In this document: one piece after another, positions 9,331 through 53,887 of the stretch
How positions within the stretch are numbered: the first letter of the stretch is position 1
Layout: each line of letters starts with the position of its first letter
Assembly: GCA_007376485.1 (NCBI GenBank)
Contig: VMGJ01000001.1
Coordinates: 41,788 to 105,787, forward strand
Direction of reading: 5' to 3'
Length of the DNA stretch: 64,000 bases
DNA from: Parcubacteria group bacterium Licking1014_17
GTDB lineage: Bacteria > Patescibacteriota > Minisyncoccia > 2-02-FULL-40-12 > IGHO2-01-FULL-4-A
Notes under the pieces: generated by a model
The model's database searches: none
What the model saw: the letters and a program-made list of their open reading frames with translations, nothing else
Told to the model about the DNA's origin: nothing
Program-made: the position numbers and the translations under genes

Positions 9331-9462
9331 ATGTTTTTCGGGACTGGATTTTCACCAGCGATGAAAATCCATCTGGTGAAGTCGCTGTCATTTGTCAAGA
9401 TATTCATTTCATTCAATCATTGACAAAACCATGCTGCCAGCGACTTCAACAGCCCTCAAAAC
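9331..9462 (+). repeat. structured intergenic element family B, copy B1
   Basis: Hairpin 'GGATTTTCA-CCAGCGA-TGAAAATCC'; stem 'GAAGTCGCTG'/'CAGCGACTTC'; stem 'TTTGTCAAGA'/'TTGACAAA'; conserved 'AACCATGC'; 5 more copies. Confidence 0.8.
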
Positions 9463-9495
9463 ACGCCGGCTCTCGCTGAATACCGCGAACTACTT

Positions 9496-9632
9496 GCGCC
9501 GCATTATTGCTTTAGGGCACTATTTGAAACGCTGATTGCATGGTCCTGAGCTCGTCGAAGGAATCAGTGGTTCAACAGAATGAGCCCGCTCGCTGGGCGG
9601 GCGAATGGTGACATAAAGCAATAATGCGGCGC
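9496..9632 (+). ncRNA. candidate structured ncRNA (possibly SRP/4.5S-like); identity unconfirmed
   Basis: Perfect 19-bp closing stem 'GCGCCGCATTATTGCTTTA'(9496-9514)/'TAAAGCAATAATGCGGCGC'(9614-9632); internal hairpins 'CTGATT..AATCAG' and 'GCCCGC-TCGCTGG-GCGGGC'; internal 'GGTCC...GAAGGAATCAG' resembles SRP domain IV 'GGUCC..GGAAGGAAGCAG'. Confidence 0.3.
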
Positions 9633-9649
9633 TACAACAGAATTTTGTA

Positions 9650-10456
9650 ATGAGGACCTATACTAAAAAATTTCAGGACAGATTACGCCTTGAGAAGCGG
9701 CGGAGATCCGTTGTTAAGCCGATTATTTATACGCTTGTTGTTTTAGCCGTTCTCGCCGCCGGCATTTTTGTCCTTTTCTTTTCCGATTTATTTTACGTGA
9801 AAGAAATAAATATTTCCGGAGCCGAAAAAATCCAGGGGCTCAATGTCGCCCAGTTCGTCAATAGTTGGCTGGACTCGGGGTTTATCGGGATTAAGCGCCG
9901 GAGCAACTCAATCATTTTCGGGCAGGACATGCTCGCGCGCTCTCTGATGAACCAGTCGGCGAGAATTTCTTCCGTAGTCATAAAAAGAGAGTCGCCGCAC
10001 AAGCTTGACATAACCGTTACCGAGCGTTCGCCGGCGGGCATTTGGTGTTACGAAACGAGCGGCAGCTGCTACTATTTTGACACTAACGGCTACGCTTACA
10101 GCAAAATCGGGGCCACATCAGGACACGTGTTTCTTAAGGTCAACGATGAGGTCAAGCAGGATACTGAAATCGGACGTCCCGTTTCGGACAATTCTTTATT
10201 CCAACTGGTAAAAAAGGTCAGTGATTCTTTAGCGCAGGCGAAATTTGCCATTACGGAGTTTGTTATTCCTAAAGATAATTTAAACGAACTGGATTTCAGA
10301 ACTAATCTTGGTTTTCTGGTGAAAATAGACACGACAGAGGATATAGACAGGCAAATTTCAGCCCTTAATCTTTTATTAAGCGAAAAACCTTATCTTCTCA
10401 AGCATCTTCTTGAATACATAGACCTCCGAATCCCGAGCAGGATTTATTACAAATAA
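9650..10456 (+). CDS. ftsQ: cell division protein FtsQ/DivIB-like
   Basis: Basic cytoplasmic N-term, single TM, POTRA-like 'VKEINISG', beta domain, C-terminal 'YIDLRIPSRIYY' typical of FtsQ. Confidence 0.7.
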   Translation: MRTYTKKFQDRLRLEKRRRSVVKPIIYTLVVLAVLAAGIFVLFFSDLFYVKEINISGAEKIQGLNVAQFVNSWLDSGFIGIKRRSNSIIFGQDMLARSLMNQSARISSVVIKRESPHKLDITVTERSPAGIWCYETSGSCYYFDTNGYAYSKIGATSGHVFLKVNDEVKQDTEIGRPVSDNSLFQLVKKVSDSLAQAKFAITEFVIPKDNLNELDFRTNLGFLVKIDTTEDIDRQISALNLLLSEKPYLLKHLLEYIDLRIPSRIYYK

Positions 10457-10476
10457 TCCCTGGTTTGCCGGAGAAT

Positions 10477-10600
10477 ATGTCTTTTCGCAGATGCTCGGGC
10501 TTTCCAGCGAAGTCCTCGCTTATAGTTCGCCAGTTTTCTCCTGCCGGCACACCGGCGGTAGACCAAGCAAAACTGACTCGCTGTACTGCTCAAAGACATA
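10477..10600 (+). repeat. structured intergenic element family A, copy A2
   Basis: Same architecture as A1; apical hairpin replaced by 'CTGCCGG-CACA-CCGGCGG' (compensatory). Confidence 0.8.
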
Positions 10601-10641
10601 CTCCCTGGCAAAAAATTGTGGTGTTAATTATAAGTTTCCTT

Positions 10642-12447
10642 TTACTTTTCTATCCTGTACACAAAAATTGAGCCGCCGATATTTGCAACGGGTTTGTAGA
10701 TATCAAGCCATCTGTAATTCGGTTTGGAGGGATTTTTGTCGGTGCCGTAAGAACCGCGCAAAGATGTTGCCGAAACCGCCAGCCAGCCGTCCGACTGATT
10801 GTTTTTTATAAAATCGGCGACATCTTTATATTTCTTGGAATAGGTCCAGATATATCTGTCGCCGAGATAATAATGCGGGTCAGCCCAGCCGAAATAATCA
10901 AATTCAATTTTTTTGATATCCTGCCCTTTCACCCAGTCGCTGAATCTTATCAAATCCTGTCCCCAATCCAAGTTTGAATCAACCACATAATTGCTTGCCC
11001 CGTTAGAAACGGAGTTTTTTTCGGGGCTGGCGTTCGCCGTGCCGCTGATGAACTGGTTAAAATAACTTAAATAATTCGGGTAAGCGCGGAAATTTTCCAG
11101 CGCGTAAAAACCGATAATCACAAAAATGGCGGTAACGGTTATTTTACCCAAAGCGGCGCTCCTATTTTTTGCCGCGTTTATTATATTAACCATGGCTCCG
11201 GAAACCAGAATTATCGCCGCGCCGTAAATCGGCAAAAGATGGCGGATGCCGATATTCAGCCCGCCGATTACGCTTATGAAAATATAAACAGCCAGCCATA
11301 AACCGAGAGCCAATTCGTCAAAGTGATTTACGGCCCATGTTTTTTTATCTTTAGCCCAATCGCTTTTTATTGCCCGCGAAATAAACCAGACGATAGCAAC
11401 TACAACCAGAAACAGCCAGGCGATTGGTTCTTTTATCAAATAAACGAACGGGAAATAACCGCGCAGCGCCGTGCTGTAGACTTTGCCCAAGAAAAATATT
11501 GTGCCTCCTCCCCGCGCCGCCCGGTCCTCTGCCATCAAAACTCCGGCGCCATAATAAGCCAGCGCTCTCACGACCGGCACGCCCGAAAGCGTCTCTATTA
11601 TTTTTACAGGGACTTTGTTGGGATAAATCGCCAGAAATGTTTTTGTGTCCTGAATCTGCTTTTGAATAGGATAATTGAAAGTGTTTAAAAAATAAACCGG
11701 GGATACTATCAAAAATATTGCAATCAGAGTGATTTTTATGGTTCCGGAAATCGGGCGGCTTCCAGCGGTTTTTAGAAACACCGCGTAACCAACTATCGCC
11801 AGTATGAAAAAGTAGGGAACGAGAAGCACCGTGGAAAATTTTGTGAGCAGGGCAAAACCCAATCCGATACCTGCCCACCAGAGATTTTTTCCGGTCTGGT
11901 TTTTCAGGTATTTAATAAATAAATAAGAACTAACCAAAACGCCCGTCAACGCCGGCACGTCGGTAGTAACAAAATGGGCGTGCGAGAGAATCGTGGTTGA
12001 AAGGGAATACAAAACAACTGCGATAAACGAACCGAGCCGGCCGTATATTTTTTGAGTCCATACAAAAACAGCCGTGCCGCCAAGAATGAAAAATAACAGC
12101 ATTGGCAAACGGGCGACGAACCGGATTTTGTCGGCGTCATTGCCCGTAGTGTTGAATATGAGACTTCTGCCGAAATTCCACTCCCCATCCACGCCTTTCT
12201 GCCAGTCGGCAGAATCAAACGCGCCCTGCTTCAGCGGCAAAGCCAGCAAGGCGATTCCCGCCAGATCTTTCACCAAAGGCGGGTGTTCAGGATTCATTCT
12301 CATATCGGCTTTTTTGACGTAGGAATAGCCGGCGCCGATATGGGGAACCTCGTCAATAATAAGCGATTCGTGCCACGAGCTTGCATAACTTAAAACAGCG
12401 CCAAGAAGAATAACAGCCGCCGCCAGAAGAATTGCCGAACGTTTCAT
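10642..12447 (-). CDS. GT-C fold glycosyltransferase (ArnT/PMT family 39-like), polytopic membrane
   Basis: 601 aa, >10 TM helices in N-terminal part, first-loop 'IIDEVPH' acidic motif, C-terminal soluble domain; start overlaps stop of upstream paralog (TAATG). Confidence 0.6.
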   Translation of the reverse strand: MKRSAILLAAAVILLGAVLSYASSWHESLIIDEVPHIGAGYSYVKKADMRMNPEHPPLVKDLAGIALLALPLKQGAFDSADWQKGVDGEWNFGRSLIFNTTGNDADKIRFVARLPMLLFFILGGTAVFVWTQKIYGRLGSFIAVVLYSLSTTILSHAHFVTTDVPALTGVLVSSYLFIKYLKNQTGKNLWWAGIGLGFALLTKFSTVLLVPYFFILAIVGYAVFLKTAGSRPISGTIKITLIAIFLIVSPVYFLNTFNYPIQKQIQDTKTFLAIYPNKVPVKIIETLSGVPVVRALAYYGAGVLMAEDRAARGGGTIFFLGKVYSTALRGYFPFVYLIKEPIAWLFLVVVAIVWFISRAIKSDWAKDKKTWAVNHFDELALGLWLAVYIFISVIGGLNIGIRHLLPIYGAAIILVSGAMVNIINAAKNRSAALGKITVTAIFVIIGFYALENFRAYPNYLSYFNQFISGTANASPEKNSVSNGASNYVVDSNLDWGQDLIRFSDWVKGQDIKKIEFDYFGWADPHYYLGDRYIWTYSKKYKDVADFIKNNQSDGWLAVSATSLRGSYGTDKNPSKPNYRWLDIYKPVANIGGSIFVYRIEK

Positions 12448-14015: not shown

Positions 14016-14079
14016 ATACGGTCATCTTAGCACATTAATGTTCTATATTCTTGTTTTAATATCCACAAATCAGGGGATA

Positions 14080-14108: not shown

Positions 14109-14114
14109 TCCTCA

Positions 14115-14505: not shown

Positions 14506-14543
14506 TTTGGTATTAGTTAAAAATTCGTTGCAAAAACCACAGT

Positions 14544-16336
<1,793 letters not shown>

Positions 16337-16344
16337 TTAATTAT

Positions 16345-16495
16345 TATGCCTTTTCGGGACTAAATTTTCGCCAGCGACGAAAATTTATCTGATGAGATTG
16401 CCTCTGTTTGTCAAGATATTTACCCCGACTATAAGTCGGGGCTCAATCATTGACAAAACCGTGCCAGAGGCAATCTCAACAGCCCTCAAAAGCAC
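16345..16495 (+). repeat. structured intergenic element family B, copy B3
   Basis: Hairpin 'TAAATTTTCG-CCAGCGA-CGAAAATTTA'; stem 'GAGATTGCCTCTG'/'CAGAGGCAATCTC' (fully compensatory vs B1). Confidence 0.8.
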
Positions 16496-16600
16496 AATAA
16501 TCTTTTACATTTGACTTTTGGTTGGTTTTGTGATAGCATTATGAAAGCATCTTAAAACCTTTTATTCTTACATTCTTGTCTGACCCGAAAGGAGACGGTC

Positions 16601-20253: not shown

Positions 20254-22860
20254 ATGAAAAATGCCAATTTGGCAAGAATCACTGCGGGGAAGCAGTTTTT
20301 CGGGTTAGGGAAAAAACTCGGGCTGTTTTTGTTTGTAATTTTTTCCGTTTGGATTTTATTTTTTGTTGTCGGGAAAAATGTAGCCGCGGATATTGCTTAT
20401 AGCTGCACCACCAAAGCTTCTGGCAATTGGGACGACCCCAATATCTGGAGCGGTTGTAATCCGACTTCTGGTTATCCGCAAACGAACGACACGGTTACGA
20501 TTGACGGCAATAACCAGGTGACATTAAATGTTCCCTCAGCTACCATCGCCGGACTTTCTTTCAGGGATACGGGATCCTTGGTTCATAAAAACGGAAACTC
20601 GCTGGCAATTAGCGGCTCGGTCGCGCTAAGCCAGCCCATAAGCGGAAATGACGTGTTTAATCAATGGCAGATAAATGATGGTTCGGCGATTGCCGTCGGG
20701 CAGATTTCTTTGGGCGGAATCGGTGCCGGCAAACTTGGCAGTAAGATTATCATTACTTCCGGAACCTTGACTGCCAAGAGCGGCATCGCTTTCCTGTGTA
20801 ACGGGCTAAATTACGAAAATTGCGTTCTTGATATGTCCGGCGGCGCGGGACGCGTTAACGTGAAAGGTCCCTTAGGTGGAATTGAAAATGCGACATTAGT
20901 GGCTGGATCAGAAAGCACAATCAGTTTCATTGATGATTCAGCAGACATGGACATTTATATGTCATGGGGCAGCGGCAGTTTTAATAATATTGAGATTAAC
21001 AGCTCCGATAAAAACGTTTATTTGGGCGAGGACATAACGCCTTTGAATGTCTTAGGAAATTTAACGGTATCAAGCGGGGTGTTTAAGCAAAACGGATATA
21101 ATGTCGAGGGCAATAATGGCAAAACACTTGAGGTAAAGAACGCCGGAACCTACGTTATAGAAGGCAATGCAACATTTCCCCCGGGTTTTGGCGCTTATTC
21201 TTTCGATGAAACCAGCACCGTGGTGTACGCGCAGAATGTAAATACGGCCATTTCGGCTCAAAACTACGGCAATGTTACGATAGAACCGGATCAGCCGGCT
21301 GATAGCGGAAGCATTGTTTTCACAATTGACCAGGGCAAGATTGTTATGGCCGGTGGCTTAGCGATAGAAACAGGAATCGCAGCCAAACCGATCACGGTTG
21401 ATGCGAATAAGAACGAAGTTCTTCTGGATATCGGAATCGGAGGCGTAATGATAGCGCAAAATGCCGAATTAATAGCCAATGGCAAAAATTTTCTCGAAAA
21501 CGACGGACCGTGGATAAACGAAGGAACATTCACTCACAACAACAACGCGGTTTATTTCGGCGGCGACAAATCAGATGCATATAAATTCATTCCGGGCAAA
21601 AGTTCGTTTTACAATCTTTTTATTGTCGGCAAGAGCATTTGGGACCTGAATAGCAACGATTTAAATGTGGAGAATTTGTTGAAGGTGGACAATGGCATAC
21701 TTTCCGGCACCGGAAACGTTGAAGTTAATGGCAATGTTGATTGCGCTTTTTCCTGCGCCGGTTCAATAAACATGACCGGCGGCAATTTTACGGTTAGGGC
21801 GCCGAAGGATGTTAATTTCGGCACCATTGGCGGTTCCGCTGACTGGCTGTTTAATAATCTCACTTTTAATAATTCTGATTCATCCGAACATACAGTAACC
21901 GCAAGCGCCGGCGGAACAGGAGAAATCAAAATCAGCGGCGTATTGACCGTTGGCGACGCCGATGATATAGCTAAAACTGTTTTTGACGCGAGTAACCGGA
22001 CTTGGGAATTAAGCGGAGGAAAAACGCCGTTTGATATTGTTGCCGGTTCTTTCAAGTCAAACACCTCAACATTCAAATACACCGCGGCAGAAGATGCCAC
22101 CATAACGGCTGAAAGCTATTATAATCTTCAGATTATGCCGGGAGAAGAAAGCACTCATACGATTGCCGAGGGCGCGCTGGCGGTGAGCAGCAATCTTGAT
22201 ATTGGAGACAAGGGAGCCGGCACGGTGACGGCGGACGCGAATAATCCGACCATAGACATTGACGGCAATTTTTCAATCGCCGAAGATTCCACTTTTATCG
22301 CGCCCGGAAAAACGGTTCTTTCAATCGCCAAGAATTTTTCAAACAAAGGAATATTCACCAACAGCGGTGGGATGGTGAGTTTTGACGGTGACAAAGACAG
22401 CGTAATCAGCGGTGACAAAACGGCTTTTTATAGCTTATCAATTACGACGCCGGGCAAGAAAATGAAATTCAGCGCCGGCCAAACATTTAATATAGGAGGG
22501 GATTTCACCGTTACCGGTTCGGTAAGCGGCAGTATTTATATTTCATCCGATATAGAAGGCTCAAAATGGTTTATTAACAAACAAGGCAAAGATAACATAA
22601 CTTTTGCCGATATTAAAGATTCCGGATGCGACGAGAAAAGCGGGGATATCGCATGCGGAGAAACATCCATAAACAGCAGTAATAATGATTTCTGCTGGAA
22701 GTTCGGTTCCGGTTTAAGAATAACATCCTACCCAAACAACGCATCCAAATCGGTTATTCCGATGGCCAGCCCAGCCGGCAAAGCTTCCTATGCCGGTACC
22801 AGTACTTACACCAACCAACCCTTGCCGTCGTTAAGACCGTTACCGCCAATCCGCAGATAA
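20254..22860 (+). CDS. large S/T/G/N-rich cell-surface protein, paralog of the giant protein's N-terminal module
   Basis: ORF open from 20221; likely start ATG 20254 (MKNANLAR..) then TM 'LFLFVIFSVWILFFVV'; 'YSCTTKASGNWDDPNIWSGC' module and C-terminal 'W[FV]INKQG..DSGCD' module both shared with 22939..31227. Confidence 0.75.
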   Translation: MKNANLARITAGKQFFGLGKKLGLFLFVIFSVWILFFVVGKNVAADIAYSCTTKASGNWDDPNIWSGCNPTSGYPQTNDTVTIDGNNQVTLNVPSATIAGLSFRDTGSLVHKNGNSLAISGSVALSQPISGNDVFNQWQINDGSAIAVGQISLGGIGAGKLGSKIIITSGTLTAKSGIAFLCNGLNYENCVLDMSGGAGRVNVKGPLGGIENATLVAGSESTISFIDDSADMDIYMSWGSGSFNNIEINSSDKNVYLGEDITPLNVLGNLTVSSGVFKQNGYNVEGNNGKTLEVKNAGTYVIEGNATFPPGFGAYSFDETSTVVYAQNVNTAISAQNYGNVTIEPDQPADSGSIVFTIDQGKIVMAGGLAIETGIAAKPITVDANKNEVLLDIGIGGVMIAQNAELIANGKNFLENDGPWINEGTFTHNNNAVYFGGDKSDAYKFIPGKSSFYNLFIVGKSIWDLNSNDLNVENLLKVDNGILSGTGNVEVNGNVDCAFSCAGSINMTGGNFTVRAPKDVNFGTIGGSADWLFNNLTFNNSDSSEHTVTASAGGTGEIKISGVLTVGDADDIAKTVFDASNRTWELSGGKTPFDIVAGSFKSNTSTFKYTAAEDATITAESYYNLQIMPGEESTHTIAEGALAVSSNLDIGDKGAGTVTADANNPTIDIDGNFSIAEDSTFIAPGKTVLSIAKNFSNKGIFTNSGGMVSFDGDKDSVISGDKTAFYSLSITTPGKKMKFSAGQTFNIGGDFTVTGSVSGSIYISSDIEGSKWFINKQGKDNITFADIKDSGCDEKSGDIACGETSINSSNNDFCWKFGSGLRITSYPNNASKSVIPMASPAGKASYAGTSTYTNQPLPSLRPLPPIRR

Positions 22861-22938
22861 CAATTAAATAGATTTCCCCACTTCTCAACAATCCGCGGTT
22901 TAACTTCCCCGCGGTTTTGTTAAAATATACAGGTAACA

Positions 22939-25900
22939 ATGAAAAGGATTGATTTAAAGAAGATCATCCATACTGGTCAGTTTTTTGCCGTGAAAAAGAT
23001 TTTCGCAACAAAAAGAACTCTCAAGCTGATTTTTGCCGCTGCCATAACAGCTACCGTCATATTTATTGTCATTTTCTCCTTTGTTAATGCCGGTCTTTTC
23101 AACTTCTATCCTCAAACCTGCCTTGGCGACTGGGAATACGCCGAAAACGCTTCCGGCAAACCCGACCTTCCTCCCGACGCCACTACCGAGAAATTTGATA
23201 AGAACAATTCCGCCTTCTTTTCCGGCGGTTACCGCAAGATATTCTGTGGCAACTTCAGAAGCAATGATGAATCCGGAGATAAAATCTTCCAGAAAGCAAA
23301 ATTGAGGTTGTCGTGGACACTCGTGCCGGACATCAACTCTGCGGTGCCTGTCATCGACCAATCCGAGTTTCAAAAAAATATACTGGATTATAGCGGGGAC
23401 GAAAAGATTATCGTGGTTCCCGATGAAGAAAAATCCGCTCCCGAAAAACAAGAGAATACGGTTTTACCTTCACCCGATGTAAGTTCATCAGCCGAAGAAA
23501 AAACACTGGAGCCGGTTCCGTCAGAATCACCCAGCCCTCAATCCGAATCGATTCCACCGACCGAGTCACCGCAATCTCCGGCGGAAGAGAATACCGCCCA
23601 AGAAAACGCTGATGTCGGCGAGCCGAGCAGTTTTAATGGAACATCTTTATTTAAAATGGGGCTTCTTGGCGTTTTCAGGACAGCGCTTACAGAGAATATC
23701 GGATCACTTCTGGGGTTAATAATGGAAATTAACAACAACAGCAGTTCCAGCTTGGAGGAAACGCTAACTCCTACAGAGCCCTCGGTTTTCATGCCCGAAA
23801 TAAGTATGGAGACGACTTCTGAAAAAGTTGAAACAAGTTCTACGCCCGCGAGCATTGCCGCCGGCGACGGCACGGCCTCAAAATCGGAATCCCCTCTGGA
23901 AAAAGAAATAATACCGCCAAAATCTTTGGATGATTTTCTTGAAATACTTTACAGCGTTGACGGCAAAAACTGGGAATCCATCGGCAATGTAAATCTTGAC
24001 AGTTTCAATAACGCCGAATTTGAGGTGCCTATTATTTCATGGAACGAACTGGCGAATCTCCAAATCAGAATCGGCGGGACGGGGCTGACGGACAGCGTGA
24101 GCGGAGTGTATTTGGACGGGATGTGGCTGGAAGTCAGTTATAGCGACAGTCAAGACGAGGTTGTTAGCGAGGATATAATGAGGGGATTGCCGAAAGTTCA
24201 GGTCAAAGACTCGGACGTTTTCAAATCAAAGAAAAAAGATTTTCGCTTTAACGAAGACGTGAAGTTTGAAATTAATCTTGGAAAAACGGCTTCCGGGAGC
24301 GTTGATGAAAACACGAAACCGCCAGCAACGCCTGAACCGTCGTCGCTTCTCAAAAATTCTTATAAAAATATTTTGGGCGCCGAGAGCGCCTTAGCCGCCG
24401 GCAGGATTGTTGAAGCCAGAGTATACAGCCCGACCGGCAAGCTGACAAATATAAAACCGTATATCAAGCAAGATACGGGGACTGAAACCGCGCAAATCTT
24501 TTTTTCGCCGCCCGGGCGAGCATACAAATCGGGCAAATACAAACTGGTCGTTGAGATTCTTCAGGATGACCGGGTAGTTGTGGCGGAACACGATTTTACC
24601 TGGGGTGTCCTTGCTTTGAACGCCAATAAGTCCATCTATATACCGGGCGAGTCGGCTTATCTTCAGTTCGCTTCGTTGAGCAATATAGGGCACACTTTGT
24701 GCGACAGCAATCTTGAGCTCATTATCACTCCGCCAAAAGGGCCAGAGTGGGTATTAAGCGTAGAGGACGGCGATATAAAAAGGAGCGACACCTGCGGACC
24801 CAATAATTATACCGACAAACCGGATTACTACGCGTATTACACGCCCGAATACACGGGCGCTTACGGACTCACACTGAAAAATTTGGATAACGGGAATGAA
24901 ATAACCGACTCCATTCAAGCCGACGGTTTGGTTGATATGGATGTGGAACGCGTCGGTGCGACGCGCATTAATCCGTTTTTGGGACAGAACTATTTTACGA
25001 CCATTAATATCAAAGCAGGTCAGCCTTTTGAGGGAGAAATTGTGGATACGCTCCCAAAGGGATTTGTGGTTATGGGCAGTTCCGATTACATTGTCCGCAA
25101 AACACCGACGGGCGACGTAGAAGTAGTATGGAGAAAAATTTTATTGCGTGGGGACACGGCTATCCTGACCTATGAATATGACCCGGCTGATATCTCGCCG
25201 GAGCTGTTTCTTCTGGGTCCGTTAAAATTTATCGCGAAGTCGGATCCGCTATCGTCTTTTTTTCAGGAAGCGCGCCAGTGGCAACTGGCGTCGGATTATT
25301 CCTGCGTCGCAAAAGCGACCGGCGCCTGGAGTGCCAGCGGCACTTGGACAACATGTAATTCAACCACACCCCAACCGACGGATACGGTTACAATCGCCAC
25401 AACATATGTTGTGACATTGGATACTTCGGCTACCATCGCCGGTCTTAGCCTTGCAAACACAGCTCAACTGAATCATCCCGGCACAAATGCCCTAACTGTG
25501 AATGGTTCAGTTGCCCTTACACCGCCGCCGACAGTCAATTTTAATCAATGGAACATTGCGGGAGGTACCGCGACCGTAACCGGCGCGATAACGTGGGGTG
25601 CCGGTGGCAGTTCAAAGGTATCTAAGATTTTAATTACAACCGGAACATTAAATGCCAGTGGCGGATTATCATTCGGCTGCCTTAATTACCCGGCAAGCTG
25701 CCTTATTGATATGTCGGGGGGCGCGGGCACTTTAAATTTAAGCGGCGCCATAACAAGCGTAACCAAAGGGCAACTAACGGCCGGGACCACCAGCACTTTC
25801 GTATACGCTGACCAGAGTGCCGACCAAACAATACAAATGGCTTGGGGCGGCGGCAGTTACAATAATCTTGGAATTAATAACGGCGCTAAGGTGGCAACCG

Positions 25901-28900
25901 TAGCCGAAAATATAACGACATCAAACGTGAGCGGTAGTATAACAGTTACCAGTGGCACTTTCAACGCCAGTAATGTTACGATTGCGGGCAACAGCGGCAA
26001 AACATTTGAGGTTGATAACGGAGCCACCTTCACGATGAGCGGCAATACAACTTTTCCGACCGGCTTTTCCACGTTTACTTTTCAGAGCACGAGCACCACA
26101 AAATACGGACAGAGTGTGGATTCGGATATTTCGGCGCAGAGCTATGGTTATCTGATAGTCAGTCCTGTTGCCGACCCCTCCAGCCACAGCGCTGATTTTT
26201 ATCTTGCTTCGGGAACCATTTCCACCGCCAGTGCTTTTATTGTCGCTTTGGGTTCCGCTGCCACTTCAGTTTTTGTTAATGCCGACACGAACGACCCGAC
26301 TCTTGATATAAACAGTTATTTGTCCATAGGCGCGAGCACGACTTTTCAGGCTTCAAATTCCGGAACTTTCACCATCAACGGCAGTTTGTTTAACGCCGGC
26401 ACGTTTACCCACAATAGCGGCACCGTCACTTTTGACAGCACCGCGAGCGGCAGGGGGATAAATATGAACGGCAGTTCACTATATAACTTGACGATTAACG
26501 GTTCCGGCGGCGAATGGTCGTCGCTCACAAATATGCTGACAGTAGCCAATGATTTAATCTTGACCGCCGGAACTTTAAACAATGCTTCCGGCAGTGCGGA
26601 CATTGAAGTCAACGGAAACGTTTCCTGTAACGGCACCTGCGGCACAGTCAGTTTGACAGCCGGAAAGTTTACCCAGAAAGTTGCCGCCGACAAAAATTTC
26701 GGAACGTCAGTGGCTGTTGCCACTGCCTGGACTTTCAATGCCTTGCATTTCACCAACAGCAGCGGCACCGACAGGATAATCACAACCAGTACCACCGGCA
26801 CCGGAACCATCACCGTAACAGCTTCCATGTCCATCGGCGTTTTCAGCGCCACCAACAAAGCCACGCTTGACGCCGACCACAGAACCTGGATTTTAAGCGG
26901 AAGTAATGAAGCCGATGCACACATTCCTCTTTCCATTGACGCCACCAAAGGAGCTCTAACCGCTCACGCATCGATTTTCCGCTACACCGGCAGTTCCACT
27001 ACCACAATCGAGGCGGCAACCTACTACAATCTTGAAGTAAAACCCGGTGGTGCCGTGACCCATACTTTCAAAGCGGGGACGACGACGGCTTACACTTTAA
27101 CCGCGGGAGACGGATCCAATAGCGGAACAATAACCACCAATACCAATAGCACGACCCTTGATATTGGTTTTGGAGGAGTTTCTATAGCTGCCTATGGCAC
27201 TCTCGTCGCCCATGCCAGCAATGCTTTTACTGTTGAAGGTTCATGGACAAACGCCGGCACTTTTACTCATAGTAGCGGCACGGTAACTTTTGACGGAACG
27301 ACGGTAGCTTCAATTCCAGTAACAACCGGCGGCAGTTCTTTCAATAATTTAATGATAGCGGGAGCGGGTAACTTCGCATTGCAGGATTCAACGACAATCG
27401 CCGGCGATTTGAAAGTAAACAGCGGCACCTTTTCTGGTGGCGTTGTCACGACTGTTAACGGCGACGTAACTTGTGTTACCACCTGCGGCACGATAAACTA
27501 TGCCAGCGGTATTTTTATACAAAACGTTGCCGGAAACAAAGCCTTCGGCACTACCGCCGGTACTGCTACGTGGACATTTAATGTTCTTCACTTTGCCGCC
27601 AGTGACGGTACTGACAGGGTGATTACCGCCAGTTCGGGTGGCACCGGAACCATCACCGTCACTGCCTCCATGTCCATCGGCGTATTCAGCGCCACTAACA
27701 AAGCTACGCTTGATGCCGGCAACAGAACATGGATTTTAAGCGGAAGCGACTCAAACGGTGATTCTCCCCTATCTATAGACGCCACTAAGGGCGCCTTAAC
27801 CGCTAACACGTCAACTTTCCGTTATACCGGCAGTTCAGCCACTACGATTGAGGCGGCTACTTATTACAATCTTGAAGTAAAACCCGGCGGCGCCGTGACC
27901 CATACTTTCAAGGCGGGGACAACAGGAGCAAATCATTTACTTACTATTGGCGACGGAGCTAATAGCGGAGTCGTAACAGCAAATACCAACAGTACTATTT
28001 TGGATGTAGGCGACGGCACAAGCGGCAGCGGCGTTTCAATCGCCGCCAGCGCCACGCTGACGGCCAACGCCAGCAACGGTTTCACGGTTTACGGCTCATG
28101 GACAAACGCCGGCACGTTTACCCACAGCAACGGCACGGTTACCTTTGACGGGGATGATGACTTAATTAGCTTTACCCTTACTCCGGCAAGCAGTCCATTC
28201 TACAATCTGACCGTAAATAATACGGGAGGCGCAATATGGACATTACAAAGCGGTCAGACTCTTATTGTAGCTAACGATTTATATATTAACGGCGGGACAC
28301 TGAACGACGATAGCGCTACTGCCATGGTTTTTAACGGAAACGTAACCTGTTCGGTGACCTGCGGTATTATCAACACCTCTGCCAATGTTATCCAAAACGT
28401 TGCCGCCAATAAAGTCTTCGGCACTACTGCCGGCACCGCCGCCTGGACTTTCAAAGCCCTTCATTTTGCCAACAGCAATGGAACCGACAGATTAATCACT
28501 ACCAGTTCGGGTGGCTCCGGAACCATCACCGTCACTGCCTCCATGTCCATTGGCGTTTTTAGCGCCACCAATAAAGCTACGCTTGATGCCGGCAATAGAA
28601 CTTGGATTTTAAGCGGGAGCGACTCAAACAGTGATCCCCCCTTAACTATTGACGCCTCCAAAGGGGTTTTGACTGCCAATACATCTACATTCAGATTTAC
28701 CGGTAGTTCCGCCACCACAATCGAACAAGCGACTTATTACAACCTTGAAGTAAAACCCGGCGGCGCCGTGACTCATACTTTCAAAGCGGGAACAACAGCG
28801 GCTTACGGGCTAACCGCTGGAGATGGAGTCAATAGCGGAGTCATAACGGCCAACACCAACAGCACAATCCTTGATATAGGTTTTGGGGGAGTTTCCATAG

Positions 28901-42495: not shown

Positions 42496-42825
42496 CTAAT
42501 TTCCGCCGTAACCCCCGCCGCCGAAACCGTGGCTTCCGCGGAATCCTCCTCCGCCGCCTTGTCTGGGCGGGCGGGCTTCCGGCGGGCGGGCTTCGTTGAC
42601 CGTAATGGTGCGGCCGTCAAATTCCTTGCCGTTCATGCCTTCTATGGCTTTTTGGGCTTCTTCCTCCGTGGACATTTCCACAAAGCCGAATCCCTTTGAA
42701 CGGCCGGACATTCTGTCGATAATGACTGCCGCCGACTCAACCGTGCCAAACTGGGCGAATGCCTCTTTCAGCTTTTCCTCGGTTGTATCGTAAGACAATC
42801 CTCCGACGTATAATTTCTTTGCCAT
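42496..42825 (-). CDS. RRM-type glycine-rich RNA-binding protein
   Basis: 'KLYVGGLSYDTTEEKLKEAF' RNP2, 'KGFGFVEM' RNP1, C-terminal 'GGGGGFRGSHGFGGGGYGG'; start set at MAKK (ORF extends to 42858). Confidence 0.8.
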   Translation of the reverse strand: MAKKLYVGGLSYDTTEEKLKEAFAQFGTVESAAVIIDRMSGRSKGFGFVEMSTEEEAQKAIEGMNGKEFDGRTITVNEARPPEARPPRQGGGGGFRGSHGFGGGGYGGN

Positions 42826-43018
42826 TTTTTCTGTACACACAACTAAACTAATTTGCAAGTCCGACCCTCGCTACTTTTTCCCTTTCGGACTCGCACATGT
42901 TTATTTGTGTAAGGAAGTAAAAAAATAGAAGCGCTTGCATCTAATATTAATAATAAGACATTCCGGGGGAGAAAGCAATAGAAGAGCAGCTGCCGGACGG
43001 GATGGTTAACTGCTATCC

Positions 43019-43082: not shown

Positions 43083-43116
43083 GACATTCTCACATTCTTG
43101 AGAATGTGAGAATGAC
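43083..43116. promoter_or_regulatory. 34-bp palindrome (candidate operator) upstream of ArsR-like gene
   Basis: 'GACATTCTCACATTC-TTGA-GAATGTGAGAATGAC' (one mismatch). Confidence 0.55.
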
Positions 43117-43127: not shown

Positions 43128-43469
43128 GTGTGTTATGATGTATTTATGGGTGTGGGACTTTTTCATAAAAGAAATAGAAATAAAAATAAGTCTGCCAAAA
43201 CCGCCAAGCAGATGGAACGACATTTCAAGGGGATAGCCAATCACCGACGAATTGAAGTTCTACTTCTCATTGATAAGCATGGGGGAATAAGCGTGGAAGA
43301 AATAGCGGAAAGCGTTGCCTGCAATTTCAAAACAATTTCTGAACATGTGCGCCGGCTCGCGCAAGCGGGGCTTGTTGAGAAAAAATACAAGGGCCGTTTA
43401 GTCACTCACACCCTGTCTCCCTACGGTAAAATTTTTACTGAATTTATATTGACATTCTCACATTCTTGA
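43128..43469 (+). CDS. ArsR/SmtB-family winged-helix transcriptional regulator
   Basis: 'HFKGIANHRRIEVLLLI..ISVEEIAESVACNFKTISEHVRRLAQAGLVEKKYKGRLVTHTL' ArsR-type HTH; real start may be a downstream Met. Confidence 0.65.
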   Translation: MCYDVFMGVGLFHKRNRNKNKSAKTAKQMERHFKGIANHRRIEVLLLIDKHGGISVEEIAESVACNFKTISEHVRRLAQAGLVEKKYKGRLVTHTLSPYGKIFTEFILTFSHS

Positions 43470-43484
43470 GAATGTGAGAATGTC
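43451..43484. promoter_or_regulatory. 34-bp perfect palindrome overlapping ArsR-like stop codon, upstream of helicase gene
   Basis: 'GACATTCTCACATTC-TTGA-GAATGTGAGAATGTC' perfect 15-bp arms. Confidence 0.55.
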
Positions 43485-46504: not shown

Positions 46505-46519
46505 TGTAATTATAAATAT

Positions 46520-49111: not shown

Positions 49112-49666
49112 ATGAACAACTCAAAAAACAATGATATGGATAGTAACGAGGGCAATAAAATGCCTGGTGGGAGTAACTTAAGAATCTATATAATAGGCGT
49201 GGCAGTGTTTATTATCGGATTGTCAATAGGTTTTGGCGTCGGGCGGAGCGGGCGCGGTGTCGGAACGAGCGGAGAGCCGCTCAAGCAATCGGCGGCTCCA
49301 ACAGCCATCTCGCTGGCTAACGGGGATAATTACATGCTGATAAAAGATCAAGCCGCCGGTTCCAAAGTTACCGTTACCGATTTGAAAGTCCAAGACAATA
49401 CATGGGTGGCAATTTACGAGGATTATAACGGAAAGCCGAGATATATCTATGGTGCCAGATTGTTCGCGGCGGGGGAACAGCACGGTATTGATGTCAAATT
49501 GATAAAACCGACCGTGCCCAGTGCCACTTATTACGCGATGTTCCATGTGGATAATGGCGACAGAGCTTTTGATTGGCAACAGGACAAAGTCATAACCGAT
49601 GATGCCGGCAAAAACTTAATATTTACGTTTCATACAACTAGTGCGCCGGCGAGCGGATCGATTTAG
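49112..49666 (+). CDS. hypothetical membrane-anchored protein
   Basis: 184 aa, TM 'IYIIGVAVFIIGLSIGFGVG', no recognised motif. Confidence 0.5.
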   Translation: MNNSKNNDMDSNEGNKMPGGSNLRIYIIGVAVFIIGLSIGFGVGRSGRGVGTSGEPLKQSAAPTAISLANGDNYMLIKDQAAGSKVTVTDLKVQDNTWVAIYEDYNGKPRYIYGARLFAAGEQHGIDVKLIKPTVPSATYYAMFHVDNGDRAFDWQQDKVITDDAGKNLIFTFHTTSAPASGSI

Positions 49667-49706
49667 TAGGATACGAGTGCTTTTAAGAAAATCATGTTAA
49701 GGGTAC

Positions 49707-49864
49707 GCCGATATGCCTTTTCGGGACTGAATTTCCCCCCGCGAGGAAAATTCATCTGGTGAAGCCACTGTTATTTGTCAAGACACAAACCCCGCCACTG
49801 GTGGGGTTTGATCGTTGACAAAGCCGTGCTAACAGTGGCTTCAACAGCCCGAAAAGGCATATCG
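49707..49864 (+). repeat. structured intergenic element family B, copy B4
   Basis: 18-bp outer stem 'CCGATATGCCTTTTCGGG'/'CCCGAAAAGGCATATCGG'; hairpin 'TGAATTTCCCC-CCGCGA-GGAAAATTCA'; stem 'GAAGCCACTGTTA'/'TAACAGTGGCTTC'. Confidence 0.8.
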
Positions 49865-50010
49865 GCTAATGCAAGCAATACAGATTGACCCATTCGGCAA
49901 GGTTCAGGGTCAATCCTGAGCGAAGCCGAAGGATTGACTTCCGGCGGTTTTTGCTTTAGTATAGACTTTCTACTTTTGAGTAATTTTTTTGTTTTAATAA
50001 CACCATTTAA

Positions 50011-51585
50011 ATGCTTGCTTTTATTGGAAAATTCATCAAAAAGCCGAGAAATATATTTTTTACAGCCATTTTAATTATTGGGCTTATTTTGATATTCTCA
50101 TCGCTTTCTAAGAGCTCGGGGAACACTATTGGCGGGATTGCCGTCGCCAGGGGCACGGTGGAGCAGATTGTCAATGTTACGGGTAAAATTAAATCAGCTG
50201 ACAAGATTAATCTGGCATTCGACAGATCGGGCAAAGTTACTTTCATAGGCGCTAAAGTCGGAGACAGGGTTGGCGCCGGCAGGATAATAATGAAACTAGA
50301 TACCAGCGAACTCGACGCGCAGGCAATGAACGCGAGTGCCGGCATTCAGGCGGCACAGGCAAGGCTGGACCAGGTCTCAAAAAGCGCACGAGGTGAAGAA
50401 GTTAATTTAGCCCAAGCGAATCTTAACAATTCCCTGCAATTACAGGTGGAAGCCAAAAAGAACGTCATAGACGCGATGCGTTCCGCGCTCGATACCGCTA
50501 TTAATTCTCTGGTTGCTTTTACCGACATTCAAAAAGAGTATTTTGCAAATTCATTTTCGGACAGTGTGGTTCTTATGGATATGAAGGAAAAAGTCATTTA
50601 TGCTATTTACGGCGAACACAATTTAGGCAGGACGGATGCCTGGTACTTCCTGGCTTTAAAGGGCGGTTTGGAGGGGCGTTTGAACGGTTTGGGAGCGGAT
50701 GCCGGCGACAGCACGATTAGCCAGTATGTGTCGGAATCTAAATCGGCCTTACTGTTGGTTCAGGACCTGCTTGAGTCCGCGCTAACGTATATGTCTAATC
50801 TCAACAGCGTAACCGATGCGGATAAAACAGCCGTTAATTCGGCAAAAACAGGGCTTCTTGCCCAAACTTCAGCGCTGAACGCCCAGCAGCAGAGTATAAT
50901 ATCCGCGAATAATGCCGTGAGCCAGGCGCGGGCGCAGTTATCTATAAAAGAAGTTCCCGGTTCTCTATATGATATTCAACTGGCCCAATCCCAACTTGAC
51001 CAGGCAAAAGCCAATCTTGCTTTAATCCAGGCGCAAATCGCCAAGTATTATATCAGAGCGCCGATCTCGGGCATTATAACCGATGTTGAGGGCAATGTCG
51101 GAGAAATCGCCGCGCCCAATAAAACGGCAATTTCAATTCTTGGAAATACGCCTTTCTATATTGAAGCGTTCGTGCCCGAAACCGATATCGTTCGTATTGG
51201 GGTGGGCGATAGTGCCAACGTAATATTGGATGCCTTCGGACCGGACACATTACTCTTCGCCAAAGTCACATCAATCAATCCGGCAGAAACCGTAATTGAA
51301 GGAGTAACCACTTTCAAAACGCGGCTTCAATTTGTTGATAAAAATCAGGAAATATTGCCGGGGTTAACGGCTGAAATAGATATTATCGCCGACAAAAAAG
51401 ACAATGTGCTGTATGCGCCGACGCGTTCAATCACGATTCGCGGCTCCAAGAGATATATTAAATTAATCAGAGGCGAAGACGGCAAGACCCAAGAGACGGA
51501 AGTAACTGTAGGATTGAAGGGCACGGATGGCAGGACTGAAATTGTTTCGGGGTTAAACGAGGGGCAAATTATCGCGCCAAGGTAA
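50011..51585 (+). CDS. HlyD/MacA-family periplasmic adaptor (membrane fusion protein) with extended coiled coil
   Basis: N-terminal TM, barrel-sandwich 'VTGKIKSADKINLAFDRSGKV', long Q/A-rich coiled coil, C-terminal beta-barrel; upstream of MacB-like ABC genes. Confidence 0.7.
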   Translation: MLAFIGKFIKKPRNIFFTAILIIGLILIFSSLSKSSGNTIGGIAVARGTVEQIVNVTGKIKSADKINLAFDRSGKVTFIGAKVGDRVGAGRIIMKLDTSELDAQAMNASAGIQAAQARLDQVSKSARGEEVNLAQANLNNSLQLQVEAKKNVIDAMRSALDTAINSLVAFTDIQKEYFANSFSDSVVLMDMKEKVIYAIYGEHNLGRTDAWYFLALKGGLEGRLNGLGADAGDSTISQYVSESKSALLLVQDLLESALTYMSNLNSVTDADKTAVNSAKTGLLAQTSALNAQQQSIISANNAVSQARAQLSIKEVPGSLYDIQLAQSQLDQAKANLALIQAQIAKYYIRAPISGIITDVEGNVGEIAAPNKTAISILGNTPFYIEAFVPETDIVRIGVGDSANVILDAFGPDTLLFAKVTSINPAETVIEGVTTFKTRLQFVDKNQEILPGLTAEIDIIADKKDNVLYAPTRSITIRGSKRYIKLIRGEDGKTQETEVTVGLKGTDGRTEIVSGLNEGQIIAPR

Positions 51586-51623
51586 ATTGTCTGTTTTTTC
51601 GGGGTTTATAAAAATGCGAATAA

Positions 51624-51766
51624 TTAGCGGTTTTTATCATCATTTACCCTGCCAGCGTCAGGATTCATTCCGTCAGAGCTGTGGATTTGGCTTGAAGTTT
51701 AGGAAGATATTATACTTCAAGCCAACCGTGCAATCCACAGCTCTGAACGGTGCTAAAAACCGCTAG
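51624..51766 (+). repeat. structured intergenic element family B, diverged copy B6
   Basis: Outer stem 'TAGCGGTTTTTA'/'TAAAAACCGCTA'; 'CCAGCG' loop; stem 'CAGAGCTGTGGATT'/'AATCCACAGCTCTG'; inner 'GGCTTGAAGT'/'ACTTCAAGCC'; 'AACCGTGC' conserved. Confidence 0.7.
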
Positions 51767-51781
51767 TTATTTGTTTTTTTT

Positions 51782-52501
51782 ATGTCCTTAATAGAAGTAA
51801 AAAATCTGACAAAAATATACCGCGAGGGCGATGTTGAAACCCGCGCGGTTGACGAAATAAACCTTAAAATTGAGAAAGGCGAGTTTGTCGCAATTATAGG
51901 CCCGTCGGGCTCCGGCAAATCAACCCTACTTCAGATATTAGGAGGGTTGGACAGACCGACAAGCGGAGAATATTTATTTGATGATAAGGACATAAGCCGG
52001 CTTCCAGACAATGAAGTAGCCCACATTAGAAACCGCCAGATGGGTTTCGTTTTTCAGGCGTTTAATTTATTGCCCCGCCTGACCGTCATTGAAAACGTAA
52101 AATTACCTTTAATTTACCGGGGAGTTGATGAACCGGAAAGAACCGTGATAGCCCGCAAGATGATAGAACTTGTAGGTCTTCAGGACAGAGAGAACTACAA
52201 ATCAGTTAAGCTTTCGGGCGGCCAGAAACAGCGCGTGGCAATTGCCCGGGCGCTCGTCAATTCGCCGAAAGTTATTTTTGCCGATGAGCCAACCGGAAGT
52301 TTGGACTCAAAATCCGGCGAGGTTGTATTAAAATATCTGGAGGAATTAAATGGGGAGGGCAATACAATTGTAATGGTGACGCACGAAAGTTACGTAGCCA
52401 AAACGGCTAAGCGCATTATTATGTTGAGAGACGGTAAAATTGAAAGCGACGAACCGGTAAGTGAAAGGCATTCGGCGTTTAAGGACGGTTTAATAAAATA
52501 A
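51782..52501 (+). CDS. ABC transporter ATP-binding protein (MacB/LolD type)
   Basis: Walker A 'GPSGSGKST', signature '[15 protein letters not shown]', Walker B '[11 protein letters not shown]'. Confidence 0.9.
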
Positions 52502-52503
52502 TT

Positions 52504-53745
52504 ATGTTCATCAGGGATATATTCACAATGTCGGTCAAAGGGGTGTCTATCCAGAAATCGCGTTCAGCGCTGACAATTTTAGGCATCGTAATCGGTATCG
52601 CGTCGGTAATTTTAATAATGTCCCTCGGCAGTAGCGCTCAAAGTCTGATTGTCAGCCAGGTTGAAAGCCTGGGTCCCGCTAATATTTTTATATTGCCCGG
52701 CAGAGAGCCGACCAGTGTTCAGGATTTTGCCGGTTCGTTGCTTAGCGATTCACTGCGGGAGCGCGACGTCGCCGAATTAAAGAAAAAAGAGAATGTGCCT
52801 CATATGGTTCGTATTGTGCCATTTGTTTTCGGTCCGGCGGTGATGTCTTACGAGTCAGAGGTAAGAAGCGAAACGGTTATCGGCGGGACCTCGGAATTGG
52901 CGAGCACCTTTAATTTAACGGTCGGCACGGGCGATTTTTACACCGATGACGACGTTCTTCAAAAAAACCAGGTAGTGGTGCTTGGTTCCAAAATCGCCAC
53001 TGATTTATTCGGAACGCAGGATATAATCGGCCATCGGGTGCACATAAAAGACAGGTCTTTCAGGGTGATTGGCGTGATGGATTCAAAGGGGCAAGGTTCG
53101 TTTGCCGATTTTGACCAATCGGTTCTGATGCCCTATTCAACCGCCCAGCAGTATCTTTTGGGCATCAGGTATTTTCACAGGATAATTATCGAAATAGATT
53201 CGGCTAATTACATAAATGACAGCATAGCGGATATACAGGATACGCTTCGGACAACCCATAATATCAAGGATCCTTCCAAGGATGATTTTAACGTAAAAAC
53301 ACAGGCGGATTTGGTAAAAACAGTGGGGAGCATAACAACCGTGCTCACAACGCTGTTGTCAGCCGTGGCGGCGATTTCACTGCTTGTTGGTGGCATCGGC
53401 ATTATGAACATAATGCTGGTTTCCGTTACCGAGCGCACGCGAGAAATCGGCTTGAGAAAAGCGCTAGGTGCGACAAACAGGGATGTTCTGCTTCAATTTC
53501 TGCTTGAAGCCGTGATTCTGACTTTAGCCGGAGGCGTTATTGGAATAATTATCGGCGCGGGTGGGTCTTTATTGGCGTCTATCGCTTTTAAAAGTCTTGT
53601 ATCTTCGAGCTGGAATTTTTCCCTCCCGTTTTCCGCGATTTTACTTGGCTGCGGCGTGTCGGTGATTATTGGAATTATTTTCGGCATTTATCCGGCGCGC
53701 TCGGCCGCCAAGAAAAGCCCGATGGAGGCGTTGAGGTACGAATAA
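52504..53745 (+). CDS. ABC transporter permease, FtsX/MacB-like
   Basis: 413 aa, N-terminal TM + large periplasmic MacB_PCD-like domain + 3 C-terminal TM (FtsX fold). Confidence 0.8.
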   Translation: MFIRDIFTMSVKGVSIQKSRSALTILGIVIGIASVILIMSLGSSAQSLIVSQVESLGPANIFILPGREPTSVQDFAGSLLSDSLRERDVAELKKKENVPHMVRIVPFVFGPAVMSYESEVRSETVIGGTSELASTFNLTVGTGDFYTDDDVLQKNQVVVLGSKIATDLFGTQDIIGHRVHIKDRSFRVIGVMDSKGQGSFADFDQSVLMPYSTAQQYLLGIRYFHRIIIEIDSANYINDSIADIQDTLRTTHNIKDPSKDDFNVKTQADLVKTVGSITTVLTTLLSAVAAISLLVGGIGIMNIMLVSVTERTREIGLRKALGATNRDVLLQFLLEAVILTLAGGVIGIIIGAGGSLLASIAFKSLVSSSWNFSLPFSAILLGCGVSVIIGIIFGIYPARSAAKKSPMEALRYE

Positions 53746-53750
53746 ACTCT

Positions 53751-53887
53751 CGCTAATCGCTTTGACGGACGTAAATTTTCCCGGCGAGAAAATTTACTCT
53801 CGTGATGTTGCTGTTGTTTGTCAAGACATAAAGCCGTTGACAAAACCATGCCAACAGCAACATCAAGAGCCGACAAAGCGATTAGCT
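53751..53887 (+). repeat. structured intergenic element family B, copy B5
   Basis: Outer stem 'GCTAATCGCTTTGACGG'/'CCGACAAAGCGATTAGC'; hairpin 'GTAAATTTTCCC-GGCGA-GAAAATTTAC'; stem 'GATGTTGCTGTTG'/'CAACAGCAACATC'. Confidence 0.8.

Follow-up and report, generated by a model that had tools for sequence, protein, structure and literature searches.

A dispersed extragenic hairpin repeat with covarying stems and two conserved unpaired motifs in Parcubacteria and Saccharibacteria

Introduction

What maintains a structured repeat between the genes of a streamlined bacterium, and is it read as RNA or as DNA? The question is raised by a 64,000-nt stretch of contig VMGJ01000001.1 (positions 41,788 to 105,787 of the forward strand; GenBank assembly GCA_007376485.1) from Parcubacteria group bacterium Licking1014_17, here called the window, in which an initial annotation had pointed out six intergenic elements of about 140 nt whose stems differ between copies and stay complementary. 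Bacteria of the Candidate Phyla Radiation (CPR, or Patescibacteria) have very small, streamlined genomes that are thought to be poor in repetitive or mobile DNA, and to our knowledge almost nothing is known of their non-coding elements. Here, a structured repeat is found to be abundant on a streamlined Parcubacteria contig and to recur in Saccharibacteria and in many metagenomes of groundwater, sediment and peat. The covariance model of the repeat can be applied to all CPR genomes, and its two invariant motifs offer handles to the protein that would read them.

The reading that we prefer, with the considerations for and against it about evenly balanced, is that the element is a REPIN-like dispersed extragenic structured repeat of CPR/Patescibacteria, whose single-stranded fold would be read by a protein and whose effects on mRNA would be secondary. 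Each copy is a near-palindrome of 140-230 nt, a single strand of which folds into a rod with one side hairpin, forming a three-way junction. According to the proposed mechanism, the folded single strand, more likely DNA, would be recognised by a putative protein via the CCAGCG loop and the ACC(A/G)(T/A)GC bulge, and this recognition would underlie slow copy-and-paste spread and maintenance, similar to the REPIN/RAYT system or to integron attC sites. Copies would survive between genes only, mostly right after stop codons, where transcription in either orientation would add a very stable hairpin to the 3′ end or the intercistronic region of an mRNA, with altered stability or processing of the 3′ end as a probable side effect. 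The choice of DNA over RNA, mobility, the partner protein and effects on mRNA are the parts of this mechanism that we infer, and reading the element as a repeat and reading it as a cis-acting RNA are not mutually exclusive. Covariation, the usual proof of a functional RNA, may here stem from a DNA hairpin; if the partner were a new single-stranded DNA (ssDNA) transposase or recombinase, or an RNA-processing factor, it would represent new CPR biology and possibly a new tool.

Six copies share one branched fold

The six copies, B1 to B6 (starting at 9331, 14544, 16345, 49707, 51624 and 53751), are all present in the window, and the order of stems and hairpins that the annotation had described as common to them was recovered by alignment and by folding of each copy. 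In particular, an outer stem is followed by two unpaired bases, a side hairpin (P1) with a 7-nt loop, a long stem (P2), an inner stem (P3) and a variable apex, while a bulge of 7-8 nt, ACC(A/G)TGC, remains unpaired on the 3′ side only. The mean column identity of the six aligned copies is 66%. From these copies alone, RNAalifold calculates a structure of 43 pairs, 31 of which show at least one compensated double change, and there are five occurrences in the window of a conserved 17-mer around the bulge, where chance predicts 0.11. In most copies, the inverted repeat runs from several to about 11 bp past the ends first assigned to them.

Several details had to be amended. The quoted stem sequences are present, but the labels of B5 and B6 were swapped: GATGTTGCTGTTG and GCTAATCGC... 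belong to the 53751 copy and TAGCGGTTTTTA to the 51624 copy. The P1 loop, described as an invariant CCAGCG, reads CCCGCGA at 49707 and CCGGCGA at 53751. The inner stem said to be common to all copies is indeed TTTGTCAA/TTGACAAA in five of the six, and it is replaced by GGCTTGAAGT/ACTTCAAGCC in the 51624 copy.

The reported distances of 6-41 nt from the preceding stop codon are correct for the six copies, and so is the lack of a canonical U-tract, a terminator-consensus scan having been negative at the 3′ ends of the elements; a T-rich run lies 3′ of the 51624 copy only. The annotation had also recognised no known class of non-coding RNA, and the database searches agree. Rfam 15 gave no match in the window at the gathering threshold, and a permissive search (E up to 10) with B3 and 14 other loci returned only chance-level matches to microRNAs and small nucleolar RNAs. 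ARAGORN called no transfer RNA (tRNA) or transfer-messenger RNA gene in the window. Further, a search of the literature on repeats or non-coding RNA in CPR, Patescibacteria, Saccharibacteria and Parcubacteria found no description of such repeats. By Rfam and the literature searched, the family is apparently undescribed.

Pairing is conserved while stem sequence is free

Compensatory change with maintained pairing was the central claim of the annotation, and it stands both for the six copies and for 57 distinct sequences drawn from this contig and other genomes. The alignment of the 57 sequences was fitted to the model and its sequences are related, so that its figures lean towards structure; nonetheless, the margin is very large. 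Standard pairs form in 88.9% of its pair cells, compared with 62.0% in column shuffles, and only 38-49% of cells are paired when the partners are slid by 1-3 columns. Both-sided changes are found in 48 of the 50 pairs, the covariation score is 0.635 as against 0.165, and one-sided changes are rare except in lower P2. The nine B- and C-type copies of this contig give the same picture independently: they are 46-76% identical to one another overall and form Watson-Crick pairs in 407 of 450 pair cells; where copies differ on both sides of a pair, both are still paired in 685 cases, versus 71. The between-copy difference is 49% in paired columns and 24% in unpaired columns outside the apex.

Two unpaired motifs are fixed, the CCAGCG loop of P1 and the bulge ACC(A/G)(T/A)GC, both on one strand; the loop is also conserved in copies outside the selection made by the search pattern, and the inner stem is fixed as well in most subtypes. 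Overall, the helices are free in sequence and constrained in pairing, while the loops are constrained in sequence. Since P1 and the other helices covary without sequence conservation, a duplex-DNA operator is excluded, and it is a folded single strand that has been maintained.

The composition of the pairs bears on the nature of that strand. Wobble is nearly absent on this contig, with 5 G.U and 14 A.C among the 450 cells, whereas a natural RNA helix with this degree of variation usually has clearly more G.U pairs. Scarce wobble and the rarity of one-sided changes are explained better by a DNA hairpin, or by correction of one palindrome arm against the other, than by RNA, and we infer that DNA rather than RNA is the folded form. 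Moreover, covariation alone is no pointer to RNA, because mobile DNA hairpins of the REPIN type are also known to undergo compensatory change (PMC3116915).

A larger family on the contig and in other genomes

Two covariance models, R1 built from the six copies and R2 rebuilt from 59 sequences, extend the family. A seventh copy is located on the minus strand (9504-9624), 36 nt downstream of B1, with a 19-bp perfect outer stem, the P1 loop CCAGCGA and the bulge ACCATGC; the earlier statement that all copies lie on the plus strand thus holds for the six listed and not for this one. Five other repeats of the window (family A; 5337, 10471, 57504, 60337 and 63162) have the fold and both motifs in common with the B copies, with a 5′ CTTTTCG, a CCAGCGA loop, the same helix order and the bulge ACCAAGC. 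R1 matches family A weakly, and R2 matches four of the five at E values of 1e-6 to 1e-11; the 60337 copy is matched by R1 only (29.8 bits, E 5e-5). On these sequence grounds, family A and family B repeats are assigned to one superfamily.

Three further copies were found in the 9 kb upstream of the window and none in the 9 kb downstream of it, which brings the count over about 82 kb of this 188-kb Parcubacteria metagenome contig to 15. Of these, 14 lie on the plus strand and a single one on the minus strand. They take up about one in four intergenic spacers and roughly 2-3% of the sequence. There are at least four subtypes, which have little in common beyond the architecture and the two unpaired motifs, and identity within a subtype on the contig is 62-86%. 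After the inner stem, ACCA is replaced by ACCG in 5 of 12 copies.

Beyond the contig, a composite pattern (CCAGCG ... TTTGT ... TTGACAAAACCRTGC) retrieved 61 metagenome contigs from groundwater 0.1-um fractions, sediments and peat, all with full-length model matches. A genome scan with the 17-mer returned 120 loci, nearly all of them chance matches, the only real copies being L015, L029, L083 and L111; two of these four are in Saccharibacteria genomes. Since copies occur in both Parcubacteria and Saccharibacteria, the family extends across distant lineages of the CPR. No match was present in phage or plasmid collections or in viral contigs. In the Saccharibacteria-type copies, the inverted repeat continues far past the model: the hairpins are about 230 nt long, the outer stem can reach about 40 nearly perfect bp, and folding energies are -100 to -130 kcal/mol.

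One Parcubacteria subgroup (e.g. L128, L134, L153 and L173) has an outer stem that extends past a conserved symmetric internal loop (GC-TCC-GSC ... GSC-TCC-GC). Read directly, this sequence resembles a flanking direct repeat, but it belongs to the hairpin. Apparent C...T flanks that were considered as a target motif were rejected, as they are the conserved internal loop of one subgroup.

The distribution bears on another explanation, namely that the elements are chromosomal DNA housekeeping sites: cruciforms for a nucleoid, gyrase or IHF-like protein (as proposed for bacterial interspersed mosaic elements), uptake signals, or replication or recombination sites. The regular spacing of about one copy per 5 kb on the contig, the Watson-Crick-only pairing, the short conserved motifs and the extragenic placement would suit such a site, and CPR bacteria depend on DNA uptake. 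However, the free covariation of the helices implies that what counts is the extruded single-stranded form and not a duplex operator; uptake signals, which are short, are found inside genes as well; and density is much lower elsewhere, with 1-2 copies per 10-14 kb in other element-bearing genomes and no element in about 20 kb of two close GroEL relatives (L122 and L125). We consider the explanation improbable.

Orientation, placement and turnover of copies

On the contig, all copies but the minus-strand one share the orientation of the genes and start 4-41 nt past a plus-strand stop codon. Some lie within operons (groES-groEL, ABC-transporter genes), and others at operon ends just ahead of the next promoter (PBP2/greA, and a promoter-like site after groEL). 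The flanking genes are housekeeping genes, including serS, groES/EL, PBP2, greA, frr and ABC-transporter genes; among 65 clustered loci, housekeeping clusters were found and no recurrent neighbouring gene family.

Elsewhere the orientation is mixed. Across the metagenome set, crude open reading frame (ORF) calls (n=49) place 34 copies in tandem contexts, 21 sense and 13 antisense, 13 between convergent genes and 2 between divergent ones; removal of duplicate loci leaves 16 sense and 11 antisense copies. These counts are approximate, as gene re-calling left the antisense labels of L130, L143 and L166 uncertain. Clear antisense copies have as neighbours PBP1A (L186), PheRS (L158), SecD, ribosomal protein S6 and a peptide-binding protein, and on the L111 and L181 contigs all genes run against the element. 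The occurrence of both orientations relative to real genes means that the family is not tied to a sense transcript. No copy is inside a gene. The initial annotation had named copies on both strands and inside genes as the mark of a plain DNA repeat, and only the first half of this description applies. Overall, the family avoids promoter-containing spacers and coding sequence, and a sense bias is marked in this genome.

A tail-to-tail pair also occurs in L187 (7597-7734, plus strand; 7805-7932, minus strand), as at 9327-9468 (+) and 9504-9624 (-) in the window; the minus-strand copy of L187 has variant motifs, with loop CCTGCG and bulge CCGGC.

An orientation linked to replication was considered by way of GC skew. 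The skew tracks the coding strand here (+0.076 vs -0.058) and therefore has no power to test the link; the orientation of L111 and L181 argues against a replication-linked rule.

Orthologous spacers differ in whether they carry the element. The groES-groEL spacer is 202 nt long here and 28-33 nt long in two relatives whose GroEL is 79-81% identical. The PBP2-greA spacer is occupied by a family A copy in the window and by one of B type in L148/L159, whose GreA is 60% identical to that of the window; in L135, which is close to L159 and has a clearly homologous spacer, an unrelated 65-nt hairpin replaces the element while the remaining spacer, including the promoter, is homologous. Presence and absence at these two spacers indicate that copies have been gained and lost. 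Three genomes have in common an extended -10 promoter (TGGTATAAT/TGCTATAAT) upstream of greA and 3′ of the element or its replacement, from which it follows that greA has its own promoter and that the element marks the end of the mreBCD-PBP2 operon.

After groEL, relatives carry ordinary intrinsic terminators. The apex hairpin of B3 (CCCCGAC-TATAA-GTCGGGGCT, 16423-16442), whose sequence occurs once in the window, nearly matches the groEL terminator of L122 (CCCCGAC-GTAA-GTCGGGGCT, then a T-run; L122 about 11780-11815). The similarity suggests that B3 may enclose the ancestral groEL terminator at its apex.

These observations can be set against the main rival of the preferred reading, which we judge somewhat unlikely: a cis-acting structured RNA in the upstream mRNA, serving as an exonuclease barrier, an RNase III or RNase Y site or a factor-dependent terminator, with a CPR RNA-binding protein reading CCAGCG and ACCRUGC. 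Such a signal would be consistent with 14 of the 15 contig copies being sense to their flanking genes just past the stops, with the location of several at operon ends before the next promoter, and with ordinary intrinsic terminators at the same place in relatives. It would also accord with all copies being intact with their loops conserved in place, with the plus-strand G.U pairs of lower P2, and with the presence on the contig of genes for an RRM protein and RNase Y. In contrast, about 40% of the tandem-context copies elsewhere are antisense to verified genes, and one copy here is on the minus strand; termination at B2 would do harm, since this copy lies between groES and groEL of one operon; there is hardly any wobble pairing; perfect stems of 40 bp exceed what an RNA signal needs; and most copies are not followed by a U-tract. 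The annotation's functional structure is therefore retained in so far as the fold is constrained across the 57 sequences, while its assignment to a 3′-UTR (untranslated region) or intercistronic RNA is only partly supported: the minus-strand copy, the antisense copies elsewhere, gain and loss, and scarce G.U pairs all speak against a dedicated sense-strand RNA.

The RRM-domain RNA-binding protein and RNase Y (window 42496-42858, minus strand; L191 14266-15756) are candidates if the elements act as RNA.

Mobility and comparison with known systems

Several observations weigh against the REPIN-like reading. Among the Pfam-annotated genes of the 82 kb there is no transposase, recombinase/integrase or reverse transcriptase. 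A tblastn search of 551 kb of CPR DNA with an IS200 TnpA query found no Y1 (HUH) transposase, which is weak evidence. Around the copies there is no target-site duplication, shared terminal sequence or target motif. The contig has no near-identical pairs of copies at different loci, so that recent movement is not shown. The co-orientation of 14 of the 15 contig copies with genes is not predicted by random insertion, and the finding that 0 of 15 copies are decayed speaks for selection on every copy where it stands, hence for some use to the host, and less for a purely selfish element. Finally, the call of a strand from wobble pairs is ambiguous, as the signal differs by helix: in the large alignment it points to the minus strand for the outer stem but to the plus strand for lower P2, many of the counts being inherited events, and the minus-strand folds of the B copies are more stable and contain more G.U pairs.

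A 268-aa gene between inverted copies was considered as a transposase and rejected, being FtsQ-like.

Another explanation would be classical miniature inverted-repeat transposable elements (MITEs), deletion derivatives of insertion sequences with a DDE transposase that are moved in trans via their terminal inverted repeats. The repeats are small, dispersed, non-coding, palindromic and intergenic, occur in both orientations and form subfamilies, as MITEs do. However, their terminal arms are copy-specific and the conserved sequences internal; there is no target-site duplication and there are no direct repeats flanking the hairpins; no autonomous parent or transposase was found among the genes of the 82 kb or the 65 clustered loci; and the copies are old (62-86% identical), yet none has decayed. 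We disfavour this origin as quite improbable.

The closest parallel is with REPINs, which are long extragenic hairpins thought to fold in ssDNA or mRNA and to be moved, without target duplication, by a RAYT (TnpA-REP) transposase (PMC3116915). As with repetitive extragenic palindromic (REP) sequences and REPINs, there are many extragenic copies able to form long hairpins in ssDNA or mRNA, with common compensatory change (PMC3116915). Target duplications are likewise absent, populations are old and diverse with no recent bursts, and inverted pairs occur. The unit differs: it is a 140-230-nt three-way junction, whereas a REPIN consists of two inverted REPs of 20-35 nt around a spacer; its conserved motifs are single, one in a hairpin loop and the other in a one-sided bulge; its host is CPR. 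The GTAG-type 5′ tetranucleotide, a REP feature, is absent at the hairpin feet, and no RAYT gene was found in the sequence examined here (82 kb annotated; 551 kb covered by tblastn with the IS200 TnpA query).

Integron attC sites, such as the Vibrio cholerae repeats, are comparable in that structure is conserved and stem sequence free, with unpaired or extrahelical bases on one strand, a variable apex and a similar length; they, too, lie directly after ORFs, co-oriented as on this contig, and are recognised as folded ssDNA. The element differs in having no R''/R' core sites (RYYYAAC/GTTRRRY), its ends being ...TTTTCGGG / CCCNNAAAA... and its outer arms variable. Moreover, no integrase is encoded in the 82 kb, the neighbours are core housekeeping genes and not cassettes, and both orientations occur in other genomes.

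ERIC, Correia/NEMIS and other MITEs share with the element a length of 100-160 nt, an imperfect palindrome, a location in transcribed intergenic regions in either orientation, and rod-like RNA hairpins able to alter mRNA stability or be cut by RNase III. Unlike it, they have conserved terminal inverted repeats, TA or similar duplications and far more similar copies, and they have no conserved side hairpin and bulge. Intrinsic terminators resemble the element in their position just past stop codons, where relatives carry them, and in the GC-rich hairpin that often forms its apex; in contrast, the elements are far larger and branched, usually have no U-tract, and are also found inside operons and antisense. 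The assignment as an intrinsic terminator was rejected on the missing U-tracts at the 3′ ends and the existence of antisense copies. Because the element fails the defining features of REPINs, attC sites and ERIC/Correia elements, it is filed under none of them; its resemblance to them is greatest in its probable mode of action.

It is also possible, and we put this forward tentatively, that the element is a new structured module specific to CPR: either a mobile or recombination site of folded ssDNA with a putative enzyme, as a CPR equivalent of REPIN/RAYT or attC/IntI, or an RNA signal that is read by a protein and replaces intrinsic terminators at many gene ends, with the loop and the bulge as the recognition code. 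If this were true, the B3 apex would hint that the element assembles around pre-existing hairpins or captures them.

Catalytic or trans-acting RNA genes, such as self-cleaving ribozymes, guide RNAs or small regulatory RNAs, with each copy self-expressed, are very improbable. The three-way junction, the few invariant unpaired nucleotides and the freely covarying helices would be in keeping with them, as would the wide spread over a large bacterial radiation of a structure unknown to Rfam. Against them count the 15 copies within 82 kb, the lack of a consistent promoter or terminator, of a hammerhead core, of a supported pseudoknot between loop and bulge and of a tRNA-like call, and the absence of a recurrent protein gene.

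Individual candidate motifs were rejected in turn. A hammerhead-like CTGATGA (CUGAUGA) occurs in B3 only, the other copies having CTGGTGA, CTCATGA or CTCGTGA, and no GAAA follows P2; a hammerhead or kink-turn is also contradicted by the pairing of the CTGATGA stretch with TCAAC/GAG, which leaves a single R.A mismatch. A pseudoknot of loop and bulge (AGC with GCU) is upheld by B1/B2 and, with co-variation, by the 53751 copy; it fails at 16345, 49707 and 51624 and in all of family A. The TTGACA of the inner stem has no -10 box at the right distance on either strand and was dismissed as a promoter. A tRNA-like element was rejected because ARAGORN was negative and ACCA is not constant.

Location of the copies and neighbouring features

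The copies of the window and their reference features are listed in Table 1. The end of B5 is 10-16 nt from the start of the ABC ATPase gene (51782), depending on whether the model end (51766) or the extended end (51772) is used, and its subtype recurs in L137 and L159.

Table 1. Positions of element copies and associated features in the window; other loci are named where they apply.
Feature	Position	Strand	Details
Copy A1 (A type), PBP2-greA spacer	5333..5483	+	loop CCAGCGA, bulge ACCAAGC; R2 E 8e-11
greA extended -10 promoter	about 5540-5560		L135 about 3985-4000; L159 about 3900-3915
Copy B1 (B type), after serS	9319..9476	+	covariance-model match 9327-9468, 142 bits
B1 extended outer stem			reaches GCTCGAGCC.../...GGCTCTCGC
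B1 side hairpin P1 (reference), GGATTTTCA/TGAAAATCC	9346..9370	+	7-nt loop CCAGCGA at 9355-9361
B1 unpaired bulge ACCATGC (reference)	9428..9434	+	directly 3′ of inner stem TTTGTCAA (9391-9398)/TTGACAAA (9420-9427)
Seventh copy (C type), tail to tail with B1, serS-ftsQ-like spacer	9496..9632	-	R1 match 9504-9624, 66.5 bits, E 7e-14; R2 84.5 bits
Copy A2, between ftsQ-like gene and convergent minus-strand gene	10464..10617	+	
Copy B2, groES-groEL spacer	14528..14690	+	
Copy B3, after groEL	16340..16501	+	apex hairpin CCCCGACTATAAGTCGGGGC, like groEL terminator of relative L122
Copy B4	49707..49866	+	19-bp perfect outer stem, loop CCCGCGA
Copy B5 (divergent subtype)	51618..51772	+	inner stem GGCTTGAAGT/ACTTCAAGCC, loop CCAGCGT, bulge ACCGTGC
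Copy B6	53751..53887	+	minimal apex, loop CCGGCGA
Copy A3, divergent spacer	57504..57650	+	outer stem the least well paired
Copy A4	60331..60480	+	R1 29.8 bits, E 5e-5
Copy A5	63157..63291	+	

Short AT-rich palindromes at 43087-43112, 43455-43480, 60215-60242 and 939-1076 gave weak model matches on both strands (E about 1-2). They flank a MarR-like gene and lie in other spacers, and they are probably unrelated small hairpins or operators.

A separate repeat array lies within a 2762-aa ORF (22939-31227), which contains tandem repeats of about 855 nt (about 285 aa) at 26317-29009 with 61-83% DNA identity. A shorter motif of 41 nt recurs nine times, from 21521 to 30351. The ORF probably encodes a giant surface protein, its only database match being a faint one to DUF6423.

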